A DNA stretch of 64,000 nucleotides from positions 1,888,001-1,952,000 of the forward strand of contig OY761614.1 in the NCBI GenBank assembly GCA_963664825.1. Reading direction: 5' to 3'. Under the pieces are notes generated by a model that worked only from the letters and a program-made list of their open reading frames with translations, had not been told where the DNA came from and made no database searches. Below are positions 6,308 through 30,546 of the stretch, piece after piece. How positions within the stretch are numbered: the first letter of the stretch is position 1; every line of letters starts with the position of its first letter. This DNA is from an uncultured Holophaga sp. GTDB taxonomy: Bacteria > Acidobacteriota > Holophagae > Holophagales > Holophagaceae. The translations under genes were made by a program, and so were the position numbers.

Positions 6308-6568
6308 TTATCGGTGCTTGGTCAACCGGACTTTAGGGGCACTGCCGCGCAGGAGGGCGGCGGCTTCCTGGATGGGCACCCCCGGGGTGGGGGTCGCGGC
6401 GCGGTTGGCGGCGGCGATGGCCTCGAAGACTTCGCTGCGGTGGACCTGGACTTCCCGGGGGGCCTTGATGCCCAGGCGCACACCCTCCTTGGTGATGCCC
6501 ACGACCATCACTTCGATATTGCCATTGATGATGATGGATTCGTCAGCCTTGCGGGTAATGACGAGCAC
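6308..6568 (-). CDS. csrA: Carbon storage regulator CsrA (long C-terminus, FliW-sensitive type)
   Basis: MLVITRK..ESIII..VRLGIKAPREVQVHRSEVF..ANRAA; GTG start with AGGAGG SD. Confidence 0.96.
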   Translation of the reverse strand: MLVITRKADESIIINGNIEVMVVGITKEGVRLGIKAPREVQVHRSEVFEAIAAANRAATPTPGVPIQEAAALLRGSAPKVRLTKHR

Positions 6569-6636: not shown

Positions 6637-7416
6637 CTAGCGACCCGCGAGGATGGGGAACTGGAGGGGGTAGGTCTCGGTATTCAGCACCACCTGTCGG
6701 CCGATGCGGGTCTTGCCGTTGATGACCAGGGGGCCCGCCAGGTTGGCGGTCATCTTCCGGGGATCCTCCGGGATGACCACCAGGGCCAGGACCAGGGCGT
6801 CGATGGGCGCCTCCAGGGCGAGGATCGCCGCATCCTCTTCCCCCAGCGGTACCTCGTAATCCGGCTGGATGGCCGCCACGTCCATACAGGTGAAGGAGAT
6901 GTCGGGTTCATCCACGGATTGAAGGAACTTGAGAGGATAGCCCCCTGCGGGTTCGAAGAGACGAAAGGAGCGGATCCGAGGGAAGCCCACCAGGCCCGCC
7001 GGAAAGGTGATCAACACCTCCTCCTTGGCATTGAATACGGGGTATTGGAGTTGGAACTGTTTGCTGTCCAGGACCACCTGAACGCCGATGCGGGTGCGGG
7101 TATTGATGACCAGGGGGCCGGCCAGATCGGCCGTCATCTGGCTGGGATCGGCGGGCACGACCATCAGCAGGAGCACCAGCGCGTCCTGGGGGGACTCCAG
7201 GGAAAGCACCTGGGCCACGGAATCCTCCAGGGGCACCTCGTAGTCCATCTTCACGGCTGCGGCGTCCATGCAGGTGAAGGAGAGATCGGGGTCTTCGGTG
7301 CTTTGGAGGAACTTGAGGGGATACCCATCGACGGGTTCGAAGAGCTGGAATGCCTTCCGATCCGGAAATCCGATGAGACCCTGGGGAAAACGGATGATCA
7401 CTTCGTCCTGGGACAT
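6637..7416 (-). CDS. fliW: Flagellar assembly factor FliW with two tandem domains
   Basis: Two ~130-aa copies of I.FP.GL.GFP, FLQS..PD.SF, MTA(D/N)LAGPLVIN; adjacent to csrA. Confidence 0.9.
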   Translation of the reverse strand: MSQDEVIIRFPQGLIGFPDRKAFQLFEPVDGYPLKFLQSTEDPDLSFTCMDAAAVKMDYEVPLEDSVAQVLSLESPQDALVLLLMVVPADPSQMTADLAGPLVINTRTRIGVQVVLDSKQFQLQYPVFNAKEEVLITFPAGLVGFPRIRSFRLFEPAGGYPLKFLQSVDEPDISFTCMDVAAIQPDYEVPLGEEDAAILALEAPIDALVLALVVIPEDPRKMTANLAGPLVINGKTRIGRQVVLNTETYPLQFPILAGR

Positions 7417-8745: not shown

Positions 8746-9462
8746 TCAGCGTCCCAGCTGGAACTGCACGGCCCCCAGGATGGCCGCCGGGCAGGTGACG
8801 GCCCGCAGGATACTCGCCCCCAGGGAGATCGGGGCCCAGCCCGCGTCCCGGAGGGCAGATATCTCCCCATCGGTGATGCCGCCCTCGGGGCCGTGGGTGA
8901 AGGCGAGTCCTTCGCGGCGGAGGGTCGGGTTGAGTTCCTCCGTGCGGAGTTCATAGGCCACCCACTTCTGGGAGAGATCCCAATCCAGCAGGGCCTGGAA
9001 GGGAATGGGATCCCGCAATTCGGGGATGGTGCTGCGGTGGCTCTGTTCGCAGGCGGCTACCACGATGCGCCGCCATCGCTCCAGCCGGGGGCCGATCTTC
9101 CGGCTCTCGTACTGGCTGCGGGCGAAGACCACGGGCTGGATGAGCGTGACCCCCAGTTCCACCGCCCCCGGCAACCATTCGTCCCACAGCGATAACTGAG
9201 CCGTGAGGGGCAGGCAGGCGTGGATCGGGATGGGCGGTTCCCGGTTCTCCTCCAGGTGGGCCACCAACCGCGCGGTGGCGCCGTGCCTCCCCAGTTCGGC
9301 GAGATCAGCCTTCCAGGGTCCCGGGGGCAGGAGCAGTTCCAGGGCATCCCCCGGCTGGAGGCGCAGGACGGCCAGGTGTCGCGCCTGTTCCGGTTCCAGA
9401 GGGACGAGGGTGTTCTCGGCAGGAATACCCGGGAAGGCCAGGACGAAGCGGGGTAGGCTCAC
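8746..9462 (-). CDS. rsmE: 16S rRNA m3U1498 methyltransferase
   Basis: HLAVLRL..GD, ELGV..IQPV, AACEQS.R..IP, GPEGG, SLG.SILRA; probable GTG start at 9462. Confidence 0.92.
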   Translation of the reverse strand: MSLPRFVLAFPGIPAENTLVPLEPEQARHLAVLRLQPGDALELLLPPGPWKADLAELGRHGATARLVAHLEENREPPIPIHACLPLTAQLSLWDEWLPGAVELGVTLIQPVVFARSQYESRKIGPRLERWRRIVVAACEQSHRSTIPELRDPIPFQALLDWDLSQKWVAYELRTEELNPTLRREGLAFTHGPEGGITDGEISALRDAGWAPISLGASILRAVTCPAAILGAVQFQLGR

Positions 9463-9536
9463 GCGGCACTTCCTGTGCCGCGCCCTACGGGCGCCGCCTG
9501 AGGCGGCGTGGCCCTCCGCTCCTGCTTCGGGATCAT
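9459..9536 (-). other. 74-nt coupling cassette with 25-aa mini-ORF MIPKQERRATPPQAAPVGRGTGSAA
   Basis: Begins ATGA and ends GTGA overlapping the rsmE start; same length as, and homologous to, 27402-27479. Confidence 0.75.
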
Positions 9537-9671
9537 GCGGCACCTCCCGACCGCCGGGTGAGGGCCAACGCTTCGCGAATGGGGGGGAAGAACATGGGAC
9601 TCTCCAGAGGAATCTCTGATTCTAGCGGCGCTCTGGGACTAGGCCGATAAACTGGAGGCTTCGGAGGCTCC

Positions 9672-10643
9672 GTGTTTACTGTTCTGCTCCAATCCGCACC
9701 TCTTTGGGCTTGGCTGGGCTTTCATGCCCTGGTCTTCGTGATGCTGGCGCTGGATCTGGGGGTCTTCAATCGGCGCGTCCATGCCCCGAGTTTTCGCGAG
9801 GCGGCCGTCTGGAGTGCCGTGTGGATCACCCTCGCCTTAGTCTTCAACGGCATCATCTTCCACTGGATGGGTCCCCTCAAGGGCACGGAATGGCTCACGG
9901 GCTATGTGCTGGAGAAGAGCCTGAGTGTGGACAATCTCTTCGTGTTCGTCATGCTCTTCGCAGCCTTCGGCGTGGAGATGAAGAACCAGCACCGCATCCT
10001 CTACTGGGGCATCCTGGGGGCGCTCATCATGCGGGCCGCTATGATCCTGATGGGCACGGCCCTGCTGAACCGCTTCGAATGGATGATGTACGTCTTCGGC
10101 GCCTTCCTGGTCTATACCGGCATCAAGATGTTCTTCGTGGAGGAAGCGGAGTCCGACCCCACCAAGAATGGCATCGTGCGGGCCTTCCGGAAGTTCGTGC
10201 CCTTCGATCCCGAGGGCGGACATCAGCATCTCTTCACGTTGAAGCACCACCGGATGTACGCCACACCCATGCTGCTGGTGCTGATCTCCATCGAAGTCTC
10301 GGATCTCATCTTCGCCGTCGATAGCATTCCGGCGGTGCTGGCCATCACCCGGGATCCCTTCGTGGTCTACACCTCGAACATCTTCGCCATCTTGGGCCTG
10401 CGCAGCCTCTACTTCCTCTTGGCCAAGATGATGGATCGCTTCCATCGCCTGAAGGTGGGGCTGGCCGTCATCCTCACCTTCGTGGGCATCAAGATGTGCG
10501 CGGCGCACTGGCTCAAAGTCTGGATGGGCGTTTCGGACCAGGGGCTGATCCTGGTCAGCCTCCTGTTCATCACCGCCGCCCTGGCCGGCAGCATCGTCGC
10601 CAGCCTGGCCTGGCCCGCGGAACACCCCGGGGACAAGTCGTGA
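9672..10643 (+). CDS. TerC/Alx family membrane protein
   Basis: EKSLSVDNLFVF, DLIFAVDSIPAV, TSNIFAILGLRSLYF. Confidence 0.95.
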   Translation: MFTVLLQSAPLWAWLGFHALVFVMLALDLGVFNRRVHAPSFREAAVWSAVWITLALVFNGIIFHWMGPLKGTEWLTGYVLEKSLSVDNLFVFVMLFAAFGVEMKNQHRILYWGILGALIMRAAMILMGTALLNRFEWMMYVFGAFLVYTGIKMFFVEEAESDPTKNGIVRAFRKFVPFDPEGGHQHLFTLKHHRMYATPMLLVLISIEVSDLIFAVDSIPAVLAITRDPFVVYTSNIFAILGLRSLYFLLAKMMDRFHRLKVGLAVILTFVGIKMCAAHWLKVWMGVSDQGLILVSLLFITAALAGSIVASLAWPAEHPGDKS

Positions 10644-13010: not shown

Positions 13011-13086
13011 GCCTGGGTAGCTCAGTTGGTAGAGCAATGGACTGAAAATCCATGTGTCGACGGTTCGATTCCGCCTCCAGGCACCA
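13011..13086 (+). tRNA. tRNA-Phe(GAA)
   Basis: GCCTGGG/TCCAGGC acceptor stem, TAGCTCAGTTGGTAGAGC D arm, ATGGA-CTGAAAA-TCCAT anticodon arm, GGTTCGATTCC, encoded CCA. Confidence 0.98.
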
Positions 13087-23551: not shown

Positions 23552-26281
23552 ATGTCACCTCGCCTTTCCCTCGTTTCCCTTTTGCTGGTCGCCTCCCTTT
23601 CCGCCCAGGAGACCCAGGACCCGAATCTGCTCAATGCCCTGAAGAATGCTGGTCAGCAGGGCAATGTGCCCAATCAGGCCGGGGACGCGCTTCCCAAGGC
23701 TCCCGGTGCGGCTTTCCAGCCGGATGCGGTTCCGACGCGCCAGGAGGAGACCGAAGCCGATCGCCTCGACCGGGAGATCCGCGCCCGCAAGGCCAAGGAA
23801 CGGGGGCCCCTGCGCTTCGCCGCCGATCTCTTCGAGGTGCGTCAGCGGGGCACGGGAGCCACAGAGGGAGGCATCTCCGAGGACTATGTGCTGGGCACGG
23901 GGGACCGCCTGGCCCTCAGCGCCTTCGGAAGCGCCAGTTTCGAGCTGCCCCTCCAGGTGGATGGCCGGGGGGATGTGGTCATCCCCAAGGTCGGCCTCGT
24001 CAAGGTGGGGGGCCTCACCCTGGGGAAGGCTAGGGGCGCCGTCCAGGGCCTGGTGAGCCGCAATTTCTCGGCCACCACCGTCGATCTCACCGTCACCAAA
24101 CTGCGGGAGGTGCGGGTCTTCGTTTTGGGGGAGGTCTACAAGTCCGGTTCCTACCTGGTGCCCAGCCTCAGCAGCCTGGTGAATGTGCTGGGCCTGGCCG
24201 GTGGCCCCACTCCCAGCGGCAGCTTCCGTCAGATCCGCGTGATGCGGGGGGGGCGCCTCCTCCATACGCTGGATCTCTATCCCCTCCGGGCCGAGGGCCT
24301 CGGGAACATGAACTTCTCCCTCCAGAATGGGGACACCCTCTTCGTGCCCCTGGTGGCCAATCAGGTGCTCTTGGAGGGAGCCTTCCAGAGAGTCGTCGCG
24401 GCTGCAGCGGCCCTTCCCCCCAAGGATGGAGTCTTCGAGCAGGATTCCGAGCAGGAGGCCCTCCGGAATCGGATTCGCCAGGAAGAGGCCCGTCTGGAAT
24501 ATTCCCGTTCCGGACAGAACAGCACCAAGACTCTTGCCCTTACACCCGATGCCTTGCGTCAGGAACAGGAGGCCGGACCCCTTTCGCCGGAGGAAAGGAC
24601 CGAGACTGAACTGCGGATCCGGATGCTGAAGGACAAATTGAAGTCCCTGGCCGAGCGCAAGCGGGGAGACCAACGTCTGAGCCCCGAGGAAGCCTTGAAC
24701 GGCCATTCGGATAATGCGGGGCAGCCTTCTTGGCTCAGGACCTGGCAGGCCGAGGGCAAGGCTCCCCAGATGCAGTTCGAGATGCTGCCCGGGGAGACCG
24801 CCGCCGCCGCCCTGCGCTTCGCGGGAGGATTTGCCCTCCAGGCTTTTTCCGAAAGCTTGAATCTCCGCCGCCTGGACGCCAAGGGCGCCATGGACGCCCA
24901 GGATCTCCCCCTGGCCTCCCTCGACCGCACGCCCCTGCAGCGGGGGGATATTCTTTCGGCCCTGCCTCGCCGGGATCACCAGGAGCGCGTGGTGGAAGTC
25001 CGCGGCTGGACCCGGGTGCCGGGGCTCTTCGCTCGCACGGAGGGCTTGAAGGTGGGGGATCTCCTCGGCCGGGATAGCCAGGTGCTCCCCGATACCTACT
25101 TGGGTCGGGGCGAGATCACCCGCACCCTTGCGGATGGCAGCACCCACTTCCTGTCTTTTGATGTGGCCCGGGCCCTGAAGGGGGATCCCGGTCACAACGT
25201 CTCCCTGGAAAACCGGGACCGCGTCGAGCTCTATCGCGTAGACGATCTGCGGCTTCCCAAGCACCTCACGGTGCTGGGGGCCGTCACGAGGCCGGGCACC
25301 TTTGCCTGGCACGAGGGCATGCGCGCGGCCGATCTGCTCTTCCGGGCTGGCGTGCCCCTTCGGGAGGCGGATCGCTTCATCGCCGAACTGGCCCACGCCC
25401 GGGATGGCAAGCCCAGCGAGGTGAGGCGGCTGGATCTCACGAGGCTCCTCTCCACGGAACAGGGCAGTCCCGTGGACCTGAAGGATGAGGCCCTCAATCC
25501 GCTCCTGGAACCCTTCGATCAGCTGAGTATCTACGCGAGACCCGATTACCGGGCCCATCGGACCGTGAAGCTCTCCGGCCAGGTGGTGCGTCCGGGGTCC
25601 TACGTGTTTGACACCGAGCACCCCCATCTCCGGGATCTCCTGGCCCGGGCCGGGGGATTGACTCCCAACGCCATGCCCCAGGCCGGGATCTTCCTGAGGG
25701 CCTTCGCCCAGCAGGACCCCGAGAAGATGCGGGCGGCTCTGGAAAGTGGGTTGGAGGCCCAGGATCCCACGGCCCAGGGCGTCAATAGCATCCTGGAGCG
25801 CCTCTCGGAGACCAAGCGCCAGCCCACCACGGGCCTGCTCCAGAAGAACCCCCTTCTCCACAAGCTGGAGACCGGCAGCCTCAATCGCCTGGTGGTCAAT
25901 CTTCCGGCAGTGCTGGCCGGGGACCGGGAGGTGGATGTGGAACTCCAGGATGGGGACGAGATCATCATCCCCCGCAAGACCGATGCCGCCTACGTGGTGG
26001 GGGAGACGGCCAGCCCCTTCGCCGTCTACAAGGTCAAGAATGGGATGACCGTGAAGGAAATCCTGGTGCTCGCTGGCGGCACCACCCGCAATGCCGACAC
26101 CTGGAATATCCGCCTGCTCAAGGCCGATGGCCGGATCCAGGATTCCTGGGTCTCCTGGCGCAAGGTCGAACCTGGCGATACCGTGCTCGTGCCCCAGCGC
26201 ATCCGCAGGGACACCACCTGGCAGGAGAACCTGACGGCCCTGACGCCTCTGGCCATCCTGATCAATACGCTGAGGAACTGA
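23552..26281 (+). CDS. Multi-SLBB polysaccharide export protein (Wza/KpsD-like)
   Basis: DYVLGTGD Poly_export motif, repeated GEV..PG / AGG / L..GD SLBB units, C-terminal VEPGDTVLVP. Confidence 0.9.
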   Translation: MSPRLSLVSLLLVASLSAQETQDPNLLNALKNAGQQGNVPNQAGDALPKAPGAAFQPDAVPTRQEETEADRLDREIRARKAKERGPLRFAADLFEVRQRGTGATEGGISEDYVLGTGDRLALSAFGSASFELPLQVDGRGDVVIPKVGLVKVGGLTLGKARGAVQGLVSRNFSATTVDLTVTKLREVRVFVLGEVYKSGSYLVPSLSSLVNVLGLAGGPTPSGSFRQIRVMRGGRLLHTLDLYPLRAEGLGNMNFSLQNGDTLFVPLVANQVLLEGAFQRVVAAAAALPPKDGVFEQDSEQEALRNRIRQEEARLEYSRSGQNSTKTLALTPDALRQEQEAGPLSPEERTETELRIRMLKDKLKSLAERKRGDQRLSPEEALNGHSDNAGQPSWLRTWQAEGKAPQMQFEMLPGETAAAALRFAGGFALQAFSESLNLRRLDAKGAMDAQDLPLASLDRTPLQRGDILSALPRRDHQERVVEVRGWTRVPGLFARTEGLKVGDLLGRDSQVLPDTYLGRGEITRTLADGSTHFLSFDVARALKGDPGHNVSLENRDRVELYRVDDLRLPKHLTVLGAVTRPGTFAWHEGMRAADLLFRAGVPLREADRFIAELAHARDGKPSEVRRLDLTRLLSTEQGSPVDLKDEALNPLLEPFDQLSIYARPDYRAHRTVKLSGQVVRPGSYVFDTEHPHLRDLLARAGGLTPNAMPQAGIFLRAFAQQDPEKMRAALESGLEAQDPTAQGVNSILERLSETKRQPTTGLLQKNPLLHKLETGSLNRLVVNLPAVLAGDREVDVELQDGDEIIIPRKTDAAYVVGETASPFAVYKVKNGMTVKEILVLAGGTTRNADTWNIRLLKADGRIQDSWVSWRKVEPGDTVLVPQRIRRDTTWQENLTALTPLAILINTLRN

Positions 26282-27258
26282 TGGAAAAGGGAATCCGGGA
26301 AATCCTCATCGGCCTCAAGCGCCCGCTCCAGATCGGCTTCGGTGCGGCCCTCCTGACGGCCCTCATCACCCTCTTCATGCCCAATTACTACCGTTCCGAG
26401 GCGCGGATCCTGCCGGTGGAAACAAAAAACCTTGGCAGCGGCCTCGGCAACCTGGCGGCGGCCGCCGCGGCCTTCGGTGTGGGCGTTCCGAGCGCGGACG
26501 GGGGCGACGCCAATTTCGTCGATATCCTGAGCAGTCGCTGGATGCGGGAAGCCCTCCTGAAGACCCCATTCACCTTCAAGGCGCGGTCCTGGCGCTTCGG
26601 CGCGGAAAAGGCGCGGACCCAGACCCTCTCTGATTACTTGAAGATCAAGAACCTGGACAGGGGCGTCAAGGAAGTGGGGGCCCTGATATCGGCCTCCCGG
26701 GATCTCAAGTCCAAGGTCCTGACCCTCAGCGTGGAGACGCCTGCGCCGGAGCTCTCCCAGCAGGTGGCCCAGCGCACCACGAAGCTCCTGGAGACCTTCG
26801 TCCAGGAAAAGGGCCGCACCCGGGGGGGCTACAAGGCCGCCTTCGCCGAGGCGAGGCTCAAGGAGGCTCGGGACGAGATGGCCCTGGCCGAAGACGAATT
26901 CCGGCGCTTCCTGGATGGCAACCGGAACTATCTCGCCAGTGCCGATCCCTCGGTGCGCATCCGCGGCGCCCGGCTGGAAGCCGAGCTCAAGCTCCGCCAG
27001 CAGCTCGTGATGACCCTCGCCATGAACCGCGAACAGGCGCTCATGGAAGAGAAGAACGATATCCCCATCCTCAACGTGCTGGACCCGGGGAATCTGCCCA
27101 TCGATAAGAGCCGTCCGGCACGCTCCATCATCGTCCTCCTCGCCTTCTTCCTGGTTTCCGCCGGGTCCTGGGCCTGGCTGAACAGGGAATGGATCCGCGA
27201 GCGGCTGCTGGACGCGGAGGACGAAAAGACCGTTACGCCTGAAACGGAGAAAATATGA
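26281..27258 (+). CDS. Wzz-like polysaccharide chain-length regulator
   Basis: Two TM segments flanking a coiled coil; P..Y.SEA.ILP and VLDP..P..KS.P.R motifs. Confidence 0.85.
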   Translation: MEKGIREILIGLKRPLQIGFGAALLTALITLFMPNYYRSEARILPVETKNLGSGLGNLAAAAAAFGVGVPSADGGDANFVDILSSRWMREALLKTPFTFKARSWRFGAEKARTQTLSDYLKIKNLDRGVKEVGALISASRDLKSKVLTLSVETPAPELSQQVAQRTTKLLETFVQEKGRTRGGYKAAFAEARLKEARDEMALAEDEFRRFLDGNRNYLASADPSVRIRGARLEAELKLRQQLVMTLAMNREQALMEEKNDIPILNVLDPGNLPIDKSRPARSIIVLLAFFLVSAGSWAWLNREWIRERLLDAEDEKTVTPETEKI

Positions 27259-27479
27259 GCATGAAACAGGGAGGCTCCGCCTTCGCGAGATGCGAGGGGG
27301 AACCCGGCCCGGGGGGCCGGGTGTTAGGCGGAGGGAGCGCCACTTCGCGCAGCGAAGCCCCGCAGGGGATGCAACGCATGCGTTGCATCACAGGAGGGAG
27401 CATGAGCACGAAGCAGGAGCGGAGTGCCACTTCGCGCAGCGAAGCCCCGCAGGGGTGCTGCACAGGAGGTGCAGCATGA
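27255..27479 (+). repeat. Tandem coupling-cassette array forming a 74-aa bridging ORF between wzz and rmlA
   Basis: GCCACTTCGCGCAGCGAAGCCCCGCAGGGG occurs twice; ATGA overlaps at both ends; last unit 27402-27479 homologous to 9459-9536. Confidence 0.8.
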
Positions 27480-28219
27480 AAGGTGTTGTTCTAGCGGGTG
27501 GGACGGGTTCCCGCCTCTTCCCCCTCACGAAGGTGACGAACAAGCATCTGCTGCCGGTGGGCTATGCGCCCATGATCTGGCATCCCGTGTGGAAGCTGAA
27601 AGAAGCTGGCGCCGAGGAAATCCTCATCGTCACCGGCACCGAGCACATGGGGGCCGTGGTGCAGTGCCTGGGGTCCGGCAAGGACTTCGGATGCCGCTTC
27701 ACCTACAAGGTCCAGGACGAGGCCGGCGGCATCGCCCAGGCCCTGGCCCTGGGGGAGAATTTCGCAGGGGGGGATTCCCTTTGCGTCATCCTGGGGGATA
27801 ACGTCTTCCAGGACAGTCTGGTGAACGAATTCCAGGCCTTCGAGCGCCAGGGCGCCGGCGCCCGCATCCTGCTCAAGCCCGTCTCCGATCCCCACCGCTT
27901 CGGCGTCGCCGAAGTCGTAGGCGATAAGGTGGTGGGCATCGAGGAGAAGCCCAAGGCTCCCAAGTCCAATCTCTCGGTGACGGGCATCTACTTCTACGAC
28001 TCCCAGGTCTTCGATATCATCCGCCGCCAGAAGCCCTCGGGCCGAGGCGAAATGGAGATCACGGATGTGAACAACGCCTATATCGAGAAGGGCCAGATGA
28101 GCTTCGGCACCTTCCAGGGCTGGTGGTCCGACGCGGGCACCTACCCCAGCCTATCCAAGGCTAATGAACTCGCCCTCGGGGAGGCCATGCCCTTCCCGGA
28201 TATCCCGAGGAAGATCTGA
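27476..28219 (+). CDS. rfbA: Glucose-1-phosphate thymidylyltransferase (short form)
   Basis: MKGVVLAGGTGSRLFPLT, KHLLPV, LGDN, EKP, RGEMEITD, W.DAGT. Confidence 0.93.
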   Translation: MKGVVLAGGTGSRLFPLTKVTNKHLLPVGYAPMIWHPVWKLKEAGAEEILIVTGTEHMGAVVQCLGSGKDFGCRFTYKVQDEAGGIAQALALGENFAGGDSLCVILGDNVFQDSLVNEFQAFERQGAGARILLKPVSDPHRFGVAEVVGDKVVGIEEKPKAPKSNLSVTGIYFYDSQVFDIIRRQKPSGRGEMEITDVNNAYIEKGQMSFGTFQGWWSDAGTYPSLSKANELALGEAMPFPDIPRKI

Positions 28220-30309: not shown

Positions 30310-30546
30310 ATGACCATCTGGCGCGATCGCATTACCAGCGACACGACCGTATGCCACGGACAAGCTTGCATCCGGGGGACACGCATTCCCGTGGCTGTCG
30401 TGCTTGATAACCTCGCGGCGGGTCTCCGGGTCGAAGAAATCATCATCAGCTATCCCAGCCTCCAGCCTGAAGATATCCAGGCCGCCTTATCCTATTGTGC
30501 TGAGATCGCCCGAGAGCGCATCGTCATCCTCCCGGAATCCGCATGA
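30310..30546 (+). CDS. DUF433 family protein (VapB45-like antitoxin)
   Basis: VCHGQACIRGTRIPV..L, YPSL..EDI.AAL.Y. Confidence 0.92.
   Translation: MTIWRDRITSDTTVCHGQACIRGTRIPVAVVLDNLAAGLRVEEIIISYPSLQPEDIQAALSYCAEIARERIVILPESA

Follow-up and report, generated by a model that had tools for sequence, protein, structure and literature searches.

What is a short, folded reading frame doing immediately in front of rsmE, and why does a relative of it precede an rmlA-like gene on the same contig? The question is raised by 64,000 nt of DNA from an uncultured Holophaga sp., hereafter the window, which lies in the genome that we call G000. Unit A (9459..9536, minus strand) and unit B (27402..27479, plus strand) are both 78-nt ORFs that start in ATGA and end in an RTGA overlapping the start of the next gene. 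An earlier note had described these ORFs from the letters alone, and their coordinates, ends and peptides were all found as described, down to the 14 identical residues out of 25; 56 of the 78 bases are identical as well. Unit A consists of 74 nt plus the repeated RTGA and holds a mini-ORF of 25 codons, the stop of which overlaps the GTG start of rsmE (8746..9462, minus strand; TIGR00046, 118 bits for a cut-off of 41). The stop of unit B overlaps the ATG of an rmlA-like nucleotidyltransferase gene (27476..28219, plus strand; TIGR01207, 224 bits, below the cut-off of 361). Another rmlA-like gene, at G000:C1:1373638, is 98% identical to the one at window position 27476, and only the window copy is preceded by a relay of repeats.

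The three hairpins that had been claimed for these units do fold as described (z -2.4 and -2.4 as RNA, -3.4 and -4.0 as DNA). The earlier note lacked a fourth hairpin, on the 5' side at unit positions 5-26, as well as a 147-nt unit and 12 further loci of the genome. From the 5' end, H1 (9511..9532 in unit A, minus strand; 27406-27427 in unit B, plus strand) has a 4-bp covarying stem, a purine 3x3 internal loop, a 2-bp stem and an AGGA loop. Next comes a near-invariant CCAC (9508..9511 in unit A, minus strand), a candidate guide. H2 (9492..9508, minus; 27430-27444, plus) is capped by a triloop, TCA in unit A versus C-GNA-G in most copies, and H3 (9483..9491, minus; 27445-27455, plus) reads CCC-GTA-GGG in unit A. 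H4 (9462..9482, minus; 27456-27476, plus) carries an SD-like AGGA(A/G) in its loop, and in unit A its last pair takes in the first base of the rsmE start codon.

Both units continue upstream into other small ORFs. The 147-nt unit (27255..27401, plus strand) starts on the stop (ATGA) of the upstream gene (26281..27258, plus strand; weak Wzz/GNVR match) and has a hairpin of a second repeat family nested in it at about 27266-27333. It is in frame with unit B, and the two therefore form one relay ORF of 74 codons running from the upstream stop to the rmlA-like start, which the protein collection also lists as a gene. At this junction, G007 and G008 carry just one unit. Upstream of unit A, a 20-codon ORF (9533..9595, minus strand) overlaps the mini-ORF by ATGA and had been thought to feed into it. 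The ORF and the overlap are there, but judging from its composition it is a patchwork remnant and not a separate or designed leader. In G004 and G007, the small ORF in front of rsmE begins in a way that resembles its 5' part. Its last 29 nt recur as the end of a relay ORF at G000:C1:3443551; they combine the end of a third repeat module with the right half of an H4. A Pfam search with the three small ORFs gave no match, and a promoter and terminator scan of 9400-9750 found none. Contigs of the public run X3 cover 8878-9992 and 24490-27532 with zero differences, so the repeat copies are not an assembly artefact; among the 15 joints listed of 36 in public runs, none skips either unit. Loose read ends cluster at the borders of a tRNA gene at window 13011-13083 (plus strand).

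The idea of a two-copy cassette was right about homology but not about number. Profile searches place the repeat at 14 loci of G000, some of which hold two or three tandem units, and the family is dispersed. Twelve matches had E<1e-9, when the best values in the reversed genome were 0.24 and 0.62; hence, the resemblance is not due to chance. Unit A scores 93 bits with a covariance model. A 29-letter pattern matched 74 of 121 genomes of the bacterial family, in 11 of its 16 genera, and its reversed control matched none; the same pattern was absent from 24 genomes of the two other families of the class. Over 141 genomes of the phylum, matches to the covariance model were confined to one family, save two marginal ones (E about 1e-4) without the anatomy of a unit. 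Among the 80 named records listed of at least 116 with the pattern, most are Geothrix, Holophaga, Mesoterricola and other Holophagaceae-type organisms. Viral contigs had no match, Rfam recognised only a tRNA in the window, and at E up to 5 it gave no credible match for five array loci. A CRISPR-like array at G000:C1:473100 lies beside a chance match to the motif. Units are on average only 73% identical, so most of the spread is old, and near-identical units occur in the tandem arrays L136, L166 and L258. Within arrays, units lie head-to-tail and their ends are direct RTGA repeats. Literature searches made without genus names, with most subscription journals outside their scope, found no published description. 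This is a real repeat family, and one apparently undescribed.

Does the repeat insert, or was it lost from most places? The search for empty sites in relatives that the earlier note proposed was rewarding. At rsmE there are 24 loci in the bacterial family: one is G000 itself, one lacks the flank, G004 has a unit and the other 21 have none. Most of the empty sites share a divergent terC-like neighbour and an ATG start; the start is GTG in the two filled sites and ATG in most empty ones. The atpF/atpH junction is a plain RTGA overlap in G006, G007 and G004, and has a 74-nt unit in G002 and G001 and a 44-nt one in G000. The rlmN gene is empty in G007, G002 and G008, has one unit in G000 and G112 and two in G006, and all these copies lie in frame inside the gene. 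Finally, rnr is empty in G004 and G008, and has 75 nt in G000 and twice 75 nt in G006. Single copies inside rlmN and rnr are 75 or 81 nt long. The presence of orthologous sites both empty and filled shows that the repeat inserts. G000 is empty at several starts where relatives have a unit; one is the ATGA start at window 30543..30546 (plus strand), which is filled in G043 (L097). Some empty sites, at atpF/atpH and at a cheW junction, resemble the 3' end of a unit and could be excision scars. In the G002 assembly, an 11-nt remnant of a unit frameshifts rnr, the RNase R gene (L218, G002:C8).

These comparisons also define the target. Where an empty site has ATG, a filled one typically shows ATG on the left and GTG on the right. 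The right-hand R pairs within H4 in all 36 aligned rows and is thus part of the unit. Base 5 of the unit is G in 51 of 53 units and its counterpart in the right flank varies, so that only (R)TGA is the repeated core. The target is the sequence RTGA, not the start codon as such. We found no longer target duplication and no target-matched guide at positions 5-8, which do not correlate with the right flank in 53 clusters. A weak excess at left positions -1, -3, -4 and -9 probably stems from older units.

If RTGA is the target, the distribution of copies among genes becomes informative. We classified 108 arrays, made of the window and loci L061-L172; these came from the pattern search, from 12 regions of G000 and from 40 regions picked from 150 listed of 404 matches. 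The 108 arrays represent 59 target clusters, so orthologues enter the counts repeatedly. A gene start marks the end of 85 arrays, six are in-frame copies within genes, and the remaining 17 are of other kinds or miscalled; several of the 17 are miscalled ends, automatic end-calling having failed for some degenerate arrays (those of L065 and L073 were corrected by hand). Other placements include copies between convergent genes and antisense copies at gene ends. The prediction that copies always sit on start codons with one length modulo three thus fared well as a preference and failed in its "always". In G000, where we left aside two in-gene loci and one tail duplication and called genes with our own script, 9 of 11 loci end on a start as against 15.8% of the RTGA sites outside coding interiors (p 2.5e-6), and 7 of 11 fill a stop/start overlap as against 3.5%. 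This excess means that gene starts are really preferred.

Reading frame acts as a filter on the arrays. An unbroken RTGA relay is found in 80 of the 85 start arrays; three others are in-frame fusions and two run past the start. For 33 of the 85, the beginning was scored as coinciding with the stop of a preceding gene, a figure that includes at least two misread divergent genes. The last unit is 3n+2 nt long in 81 of 85. Among nine derived lengths, which leave out L159 with its poly-G stretch, seven are 3n+2 (59, 62, 65, 86, 131, 149 and 197), one is 3n and one 3n+1. In contrast, all six in-gene arrays are 3n, and they retain GGAGG in two cases out of six versus 72 out of 85 for start arrays. 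Together with the empty and filled sites and the preference for starts, these relays support the suggestion of a mobile module that occupies stop/start junctions and leaves coupling unbroken.

The fold of the unit is supported by covariation. When four helices are laid on 36 aligned units, 90.5% of the cells are paired and both partners have changed in 16 of 24 pairs, in rows that are related and with a structure drawn from unit A; none of 500 shuffles reaches the observed value and slid controls give 32-47%. Three of the four outer pairs of H1 change on both sides, and pair 55-76 of H4 is CG in 20 rows, UA in 13 and GC in 3, and is never unpaired. The H2 loop is C-GNA-G in 68 of 89 distinct units and the H3 loop GNA in 71 of 89. 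GNA triloops closed by C-G are very stable in DNA (PMC3201870; PMC13037366), and PMC13037366 notes for the tetraloop form that its RNA counterpart is less stable. CCAC is kept in 132 of 137 units, a count biased by its being part of the search pattern. In the fold of unit A its CA is paired to the 3' TG, in that of unit B to the 5' TG, so it might be a switchable guide, by analogy with the guides of IS200/IS605 elements (PMC3333891). H4 alone folds with -15.0 and -12.6 kcal/mol, the SD core being in the loop and the first base of the start paired. Substitution rates are 0.22, 0.15 and 0.21 at the three codon positions, and this lack of a pattern means that the peptide is not what is conserved. 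In-frame stops in 75 units number 1, 16 and 3 in frames 0, 1 and 2, all below a crude simulation, and depletion of stops did not single out the frame of the mini-ORF in this set.

We propose that this is a non-autonomous mobile repeat of the Holophagaceae, a family of soil and sediment bacteria, and that it probably works like a MIRU; its mini-ORF and built-in SD are best read as limiting damage rather than regulating. At insertion, the RTGA of the target stays on the left and the unit supplies its own RTGA on the right. The old start, or the old stop/start overlap, would then open the mini-ORF. H4 would stand in the way of new initiation, yet a ribosome that terminates at the overlapping TGA could unfold it and restart on the host gene. 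Melting of the SD hairpin by the ribosome, which the earlier note had also put forward, is plausible in view of the models of unfolding and reinitiation for coupled genes discussed in PMC12548453. From the established biology of coupling, such relayed translation would make an insertion nearly harmless. The unfolding and reinitiation model would also explain the frame filter, by which survivors are 3n+2 with an SD at starts and 3n inside genes. The peptide itself would have no job. Copies pile up in tandem and gather nested insertions. The coupling principle itself is already known. The repeat alters the ribosome-binding sites and start codons of housekeeping genes (ATP synthase, rsmE, sbcC) throughout the bacterial family, and in annotations it gives rise to spurious small genes and N-terminal extensions.

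The likeness to MIRUs lies in functional features. In the account of PMC12548453, MIRUs are mobile and land on start codons, carry an internal ORF that is coupled to the host gene at -4 spacing, and are proposed to keep harm to a minimum. The present family is similarly short, dispersed (14 loci in G000, 59 target clusters) and apparently mobile; it inserts at start codons, if not exclusively (85 of 108 arrays), and its internal ORF has the -4 overlap in 80 of 85. MIRUs vary in tandem copy number, and such variation is observed here too. Yet, the host belongs to another phylum and matches are found in one family, not in mycobacteria, so narrow a host range that homology to MIRUs is not suggested. 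The same account does not mention, for MIRUs, several features of the present repeat: covariation in four hairpins with DNA-type triloops, copies in frame within genes, copies in antisense and duplicated gene tails.

Other known systems share other traits. REP/BIME sequences with TnpA-REP (RAYT) and the ends of IS200/IS605 also have strand-specific hairpins with compensatory changes, a conserved tetranucleotide at the hairpin foot, variation in tandem number, and a 4-nt target to which the element supplies its own end (PMC3333891). Unlike REP/BIME, our units have no 5' GTAG on the folding strand, where CCAC is found instead, and form no REP/iREP pairs; unlike REP/RAYT, they have no Y1 enzyme in G000 or linked to them and sit on start codons rather than after genes; and unlike IS200/IS605 they have no lagging-strand bias in the small sample of G000. 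The units resemble MITEs, as these are defined in PMC3049150, in being short, folded and non-autonomous with a short direct repeat at the ends, but they are GC-rich, strongly oriented and devoid of the terminal inverted repeats of that definition. We rejected REP, MITE and attC identities, the features of membership being absent. As in ATGA termination-reinitiation and bicistronic designs (PMC12548453), a short ORF brings the ribosome to a start hidden by structure, but in this family the relay comes with a repeat, after the fact. Rickettsia palindromic elements likewise lie in frame inside protein genes, where they add a peptide loop, but of our arrays only 6 of 108 do so and the main niche is the start codon.

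Could the units have been domesticated for regulation? The two AGGA loops, about 49 nt apart, might bind a CsrA dimer over the SD, with the targets under CsrA/FliW control and the mini-ORF as a switch. The paired A(N)GGA sites that CsrA recognises lie in hairpin loops separated by 10-55 nt (PMC6028588), and the loops at unit positions 14-17 and 63-66 fit this geometry, though the motif resembles any SD and so counts for little. Both csrA (6308..6568, minus strand) and fliW lie in the window, outside the repeat; fliW adjoins csrA, has two tandem FliW domains (6637-7416, minus strand) and has a YjfB-family gene after it. The repeat occurs in 65 of 84 csrA-positive genomes versus 9 of 37 csrA-negative ones, and the association also holds within genera g5 (p 0.0016) and g14 (p 0.008), when the integrase taken as a control has no such link within g5 (p 0.22). 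However, the integron integrase also goes with the repeat across the bacterial family (56 of 79 versus 18 of 42, p 0.003), so that tables of the whole family are confounded. On a lepA tree that is poorly resolved, covers 27 of 30 genomes and includes 19 csrA-positive genomes hand-picked among 39, the 10 csrA-negative g5 genomes placed make up about five lineages, one with 8 copies, and some csrA-positive lineages have 0-2 copies. (A tricorn protease, present in 4 of the 30 genomes, was too patchy as a marker for a tree.) Genera g9 and g13 have csrA (12 of 12 and 3 of 3 genomes) and few or no copies, and three of 13 listed matches of the csrA-positive G100 have lost the GGA of H1. Target genes share no function, and at copies inside genes and in antisense CsrA control is impossible. 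Thus, the candidate CsrA site has the geometry and a genome-level association on its side, but the latter weakens once lineage is considered. CsrA control is improbable, and a side effect or confounding by lineage is likelier than a function. More generally, the notion of a regulatory module is not supported: targets are unrelated, the peptide is free of codon-position pattern and the upstream ORF is a remnant.

How such a repeat moves is the more intriguing question, and the treatment of start-codon-inserting repeats in PMC12548453 offers, in the sections concerned, no explanation. Useful leads from the present family are its 4-base target, hairpins that covary and whose DNA-type loops mark one strand, a candidate guide, cultured hosts, and off-target products such as the in-frame insertions in RlmN and RNase R and the duplicated gene tails. 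The GNA loops and the junctions point to DNA. The unit may move as a single folded DNA strand, the mRNA-like one, probably via a circle, with CA pairing to the TG of the target or of its own end and with some enzyme doing the work, a proposal about equally likely to be right or wrong. The geometry of junctions fits insertion of the IS200/IS605 type, and a crossover inside the TGA core fits equally. We rejected a Y1 transposase as mover, as G000 has none and no unit lies near 30 Y1 loci. Y1 occurs in 20 of 121 genomes of the bacterial family, and the repeat is in 11 of 20 genomes with Y1 versus 63 of 101 without (p 0.62). It also speaks against the proposed movement that neither G000 nor viral contigs yielded a larger element sharing the ends of the unit, and that we saw no bias for replication strand in G000, 6 of 14 loci being leading versus 8 of 14, in a small sample. 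One might speculate on a new single-strand recombinase that would act on a four-way DNA fold in which the CA guide swaps between the RTGA of the unit and that of a target on the transcribed, mRNA-like strand, though we consider it unlikely. If true, it would yield circles, tandem arrays, in-frame insertions and gene-tail duplications alike, the companion repeats that target GAGG would share its logic, and MIRU-type repeats in other phyla might have moved likewise.

Three other routes have to be weighed against movement as single-stranded DNA. The strong preference for the sense strand and for start codons without replication-strand bias would be natural if the unit were copied as part of the host mRNA, then reverse-transcribed or reverse-spliced by an enzyme of the host or of an intron, and joined to RTGA by recombination; T-G outnumbers A-C in H2 by 64 to 8, albeit mostly through one inherited pair, and the long gene-tail duplications resemble primed insertion. 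Yet, H2 and H3 are capped by GNA triloops and not by GNRA or UNCG tetraloops, in-gene copies keep frame and so are not spliced out, and antisense copies exist, which leaves passage through RNA quite improbable. Dedicated mobility might also be dispensed with altogether, if SD-plus-start junctions had duplicated locally and spread by slippage and gene conversion. Near-identical tandem units (L136, L166, L258) are what this would produce, and slippage probably does explain copy number within arrays; some targets look like the 3' end of a unit, but targets are not clearly more unit-end-like than other overlaps (18 versus 228 sites, p 0.096). The ends are precise inside rlmN and rnr, where SD-like homology is absent, and four covarying helices need a reader of structure. 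We consider such an origin very unlikely. Least credible is an attC-like substrate moved by the resident integron integrase, which we hardly believe at all. G000 does have an integron, with an integrase, about 12 attC sites and small AT-rich cassettes (G000:C1:2531900-2539900), and integron integrases, found in 79 of 121 genomes of the bacterial family, act on folded single strands and make circles (PMC5737381). But the unit lacks RYYYAAC/GTTRRRY boxes and true attC sites of G000 look different, no unit lies near 30 integron-integrase loci, genera g7, g13 and g16 have the integrase without a match to the pattern, and G018 and G008 carry 16 and 10 copies without a detected integrase.

Some odd loci bear on movement as single-stranded DNA. 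Downstream of an intact gene they have some short filler and then a unit, after which the last 10-50 codons of the gene appear again, the duplicated tail beginning at an internal RTGA-like site. Such duplications are in sense at lepA, nuoD and asnS, and antisense at guaA, uvrA, an integron-type integrase gene and one more. Except for nuoD, these gene names are our assumption from recognising the peptides. The tail copy in L113 is identical over about 77 nt; elsewhere copies differ at silent sites. Circles or one-ended strand transfer at the unit end would fit these structures, and an alternative is an in-frame insertion bypassed later by an integrating element. In G053 a block of 348 nt made of uvrA tail, filler and antisense unit is present in three tandem copies (L368, G053:C2:1277604-1278381). 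This three-fold block lies directly downstream of csrA-yjfB.

The units are also hosts to other repeats. Two further hairpin families nest in them and also stand alone in G000: one is a 57-nt insert that repeats GAGG (131-nt variant), and the other ends in the motif of the 20-codon ORF of the window. The second family has hairpins of 57-70 nt with CTCC/GGAG ends, which insert at GAGG, often in the SD loop of a unit with the frame kept (G000:C1:350144, minus; 553337, plus; 2302716 and 2302885, plus; window 27266-27333). An intergenic tandem duplication of 169 nt at G000:C1:2302600-2303000 carries such a hairpin. The third module, with CCTCC/GGAGG ends, is found at G000:C1:1875821-1875890, 2280062-2280020 and 3443495-3443566, and after lepA in L433; at 3443449-3443576 it lies inside a 125-nt relay ORF between two genes. 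A fourth, GC-rich hairpin is inserted within the duplicated lepA tail in L420, L430, L431, L432 and L077. After lepA in G119 and G106 (L411, L426), an AT-rich imperfect palindrome (ACAGGAT/ATCCTGT) occupies the spot where other genomes carry GC-rich repeats.
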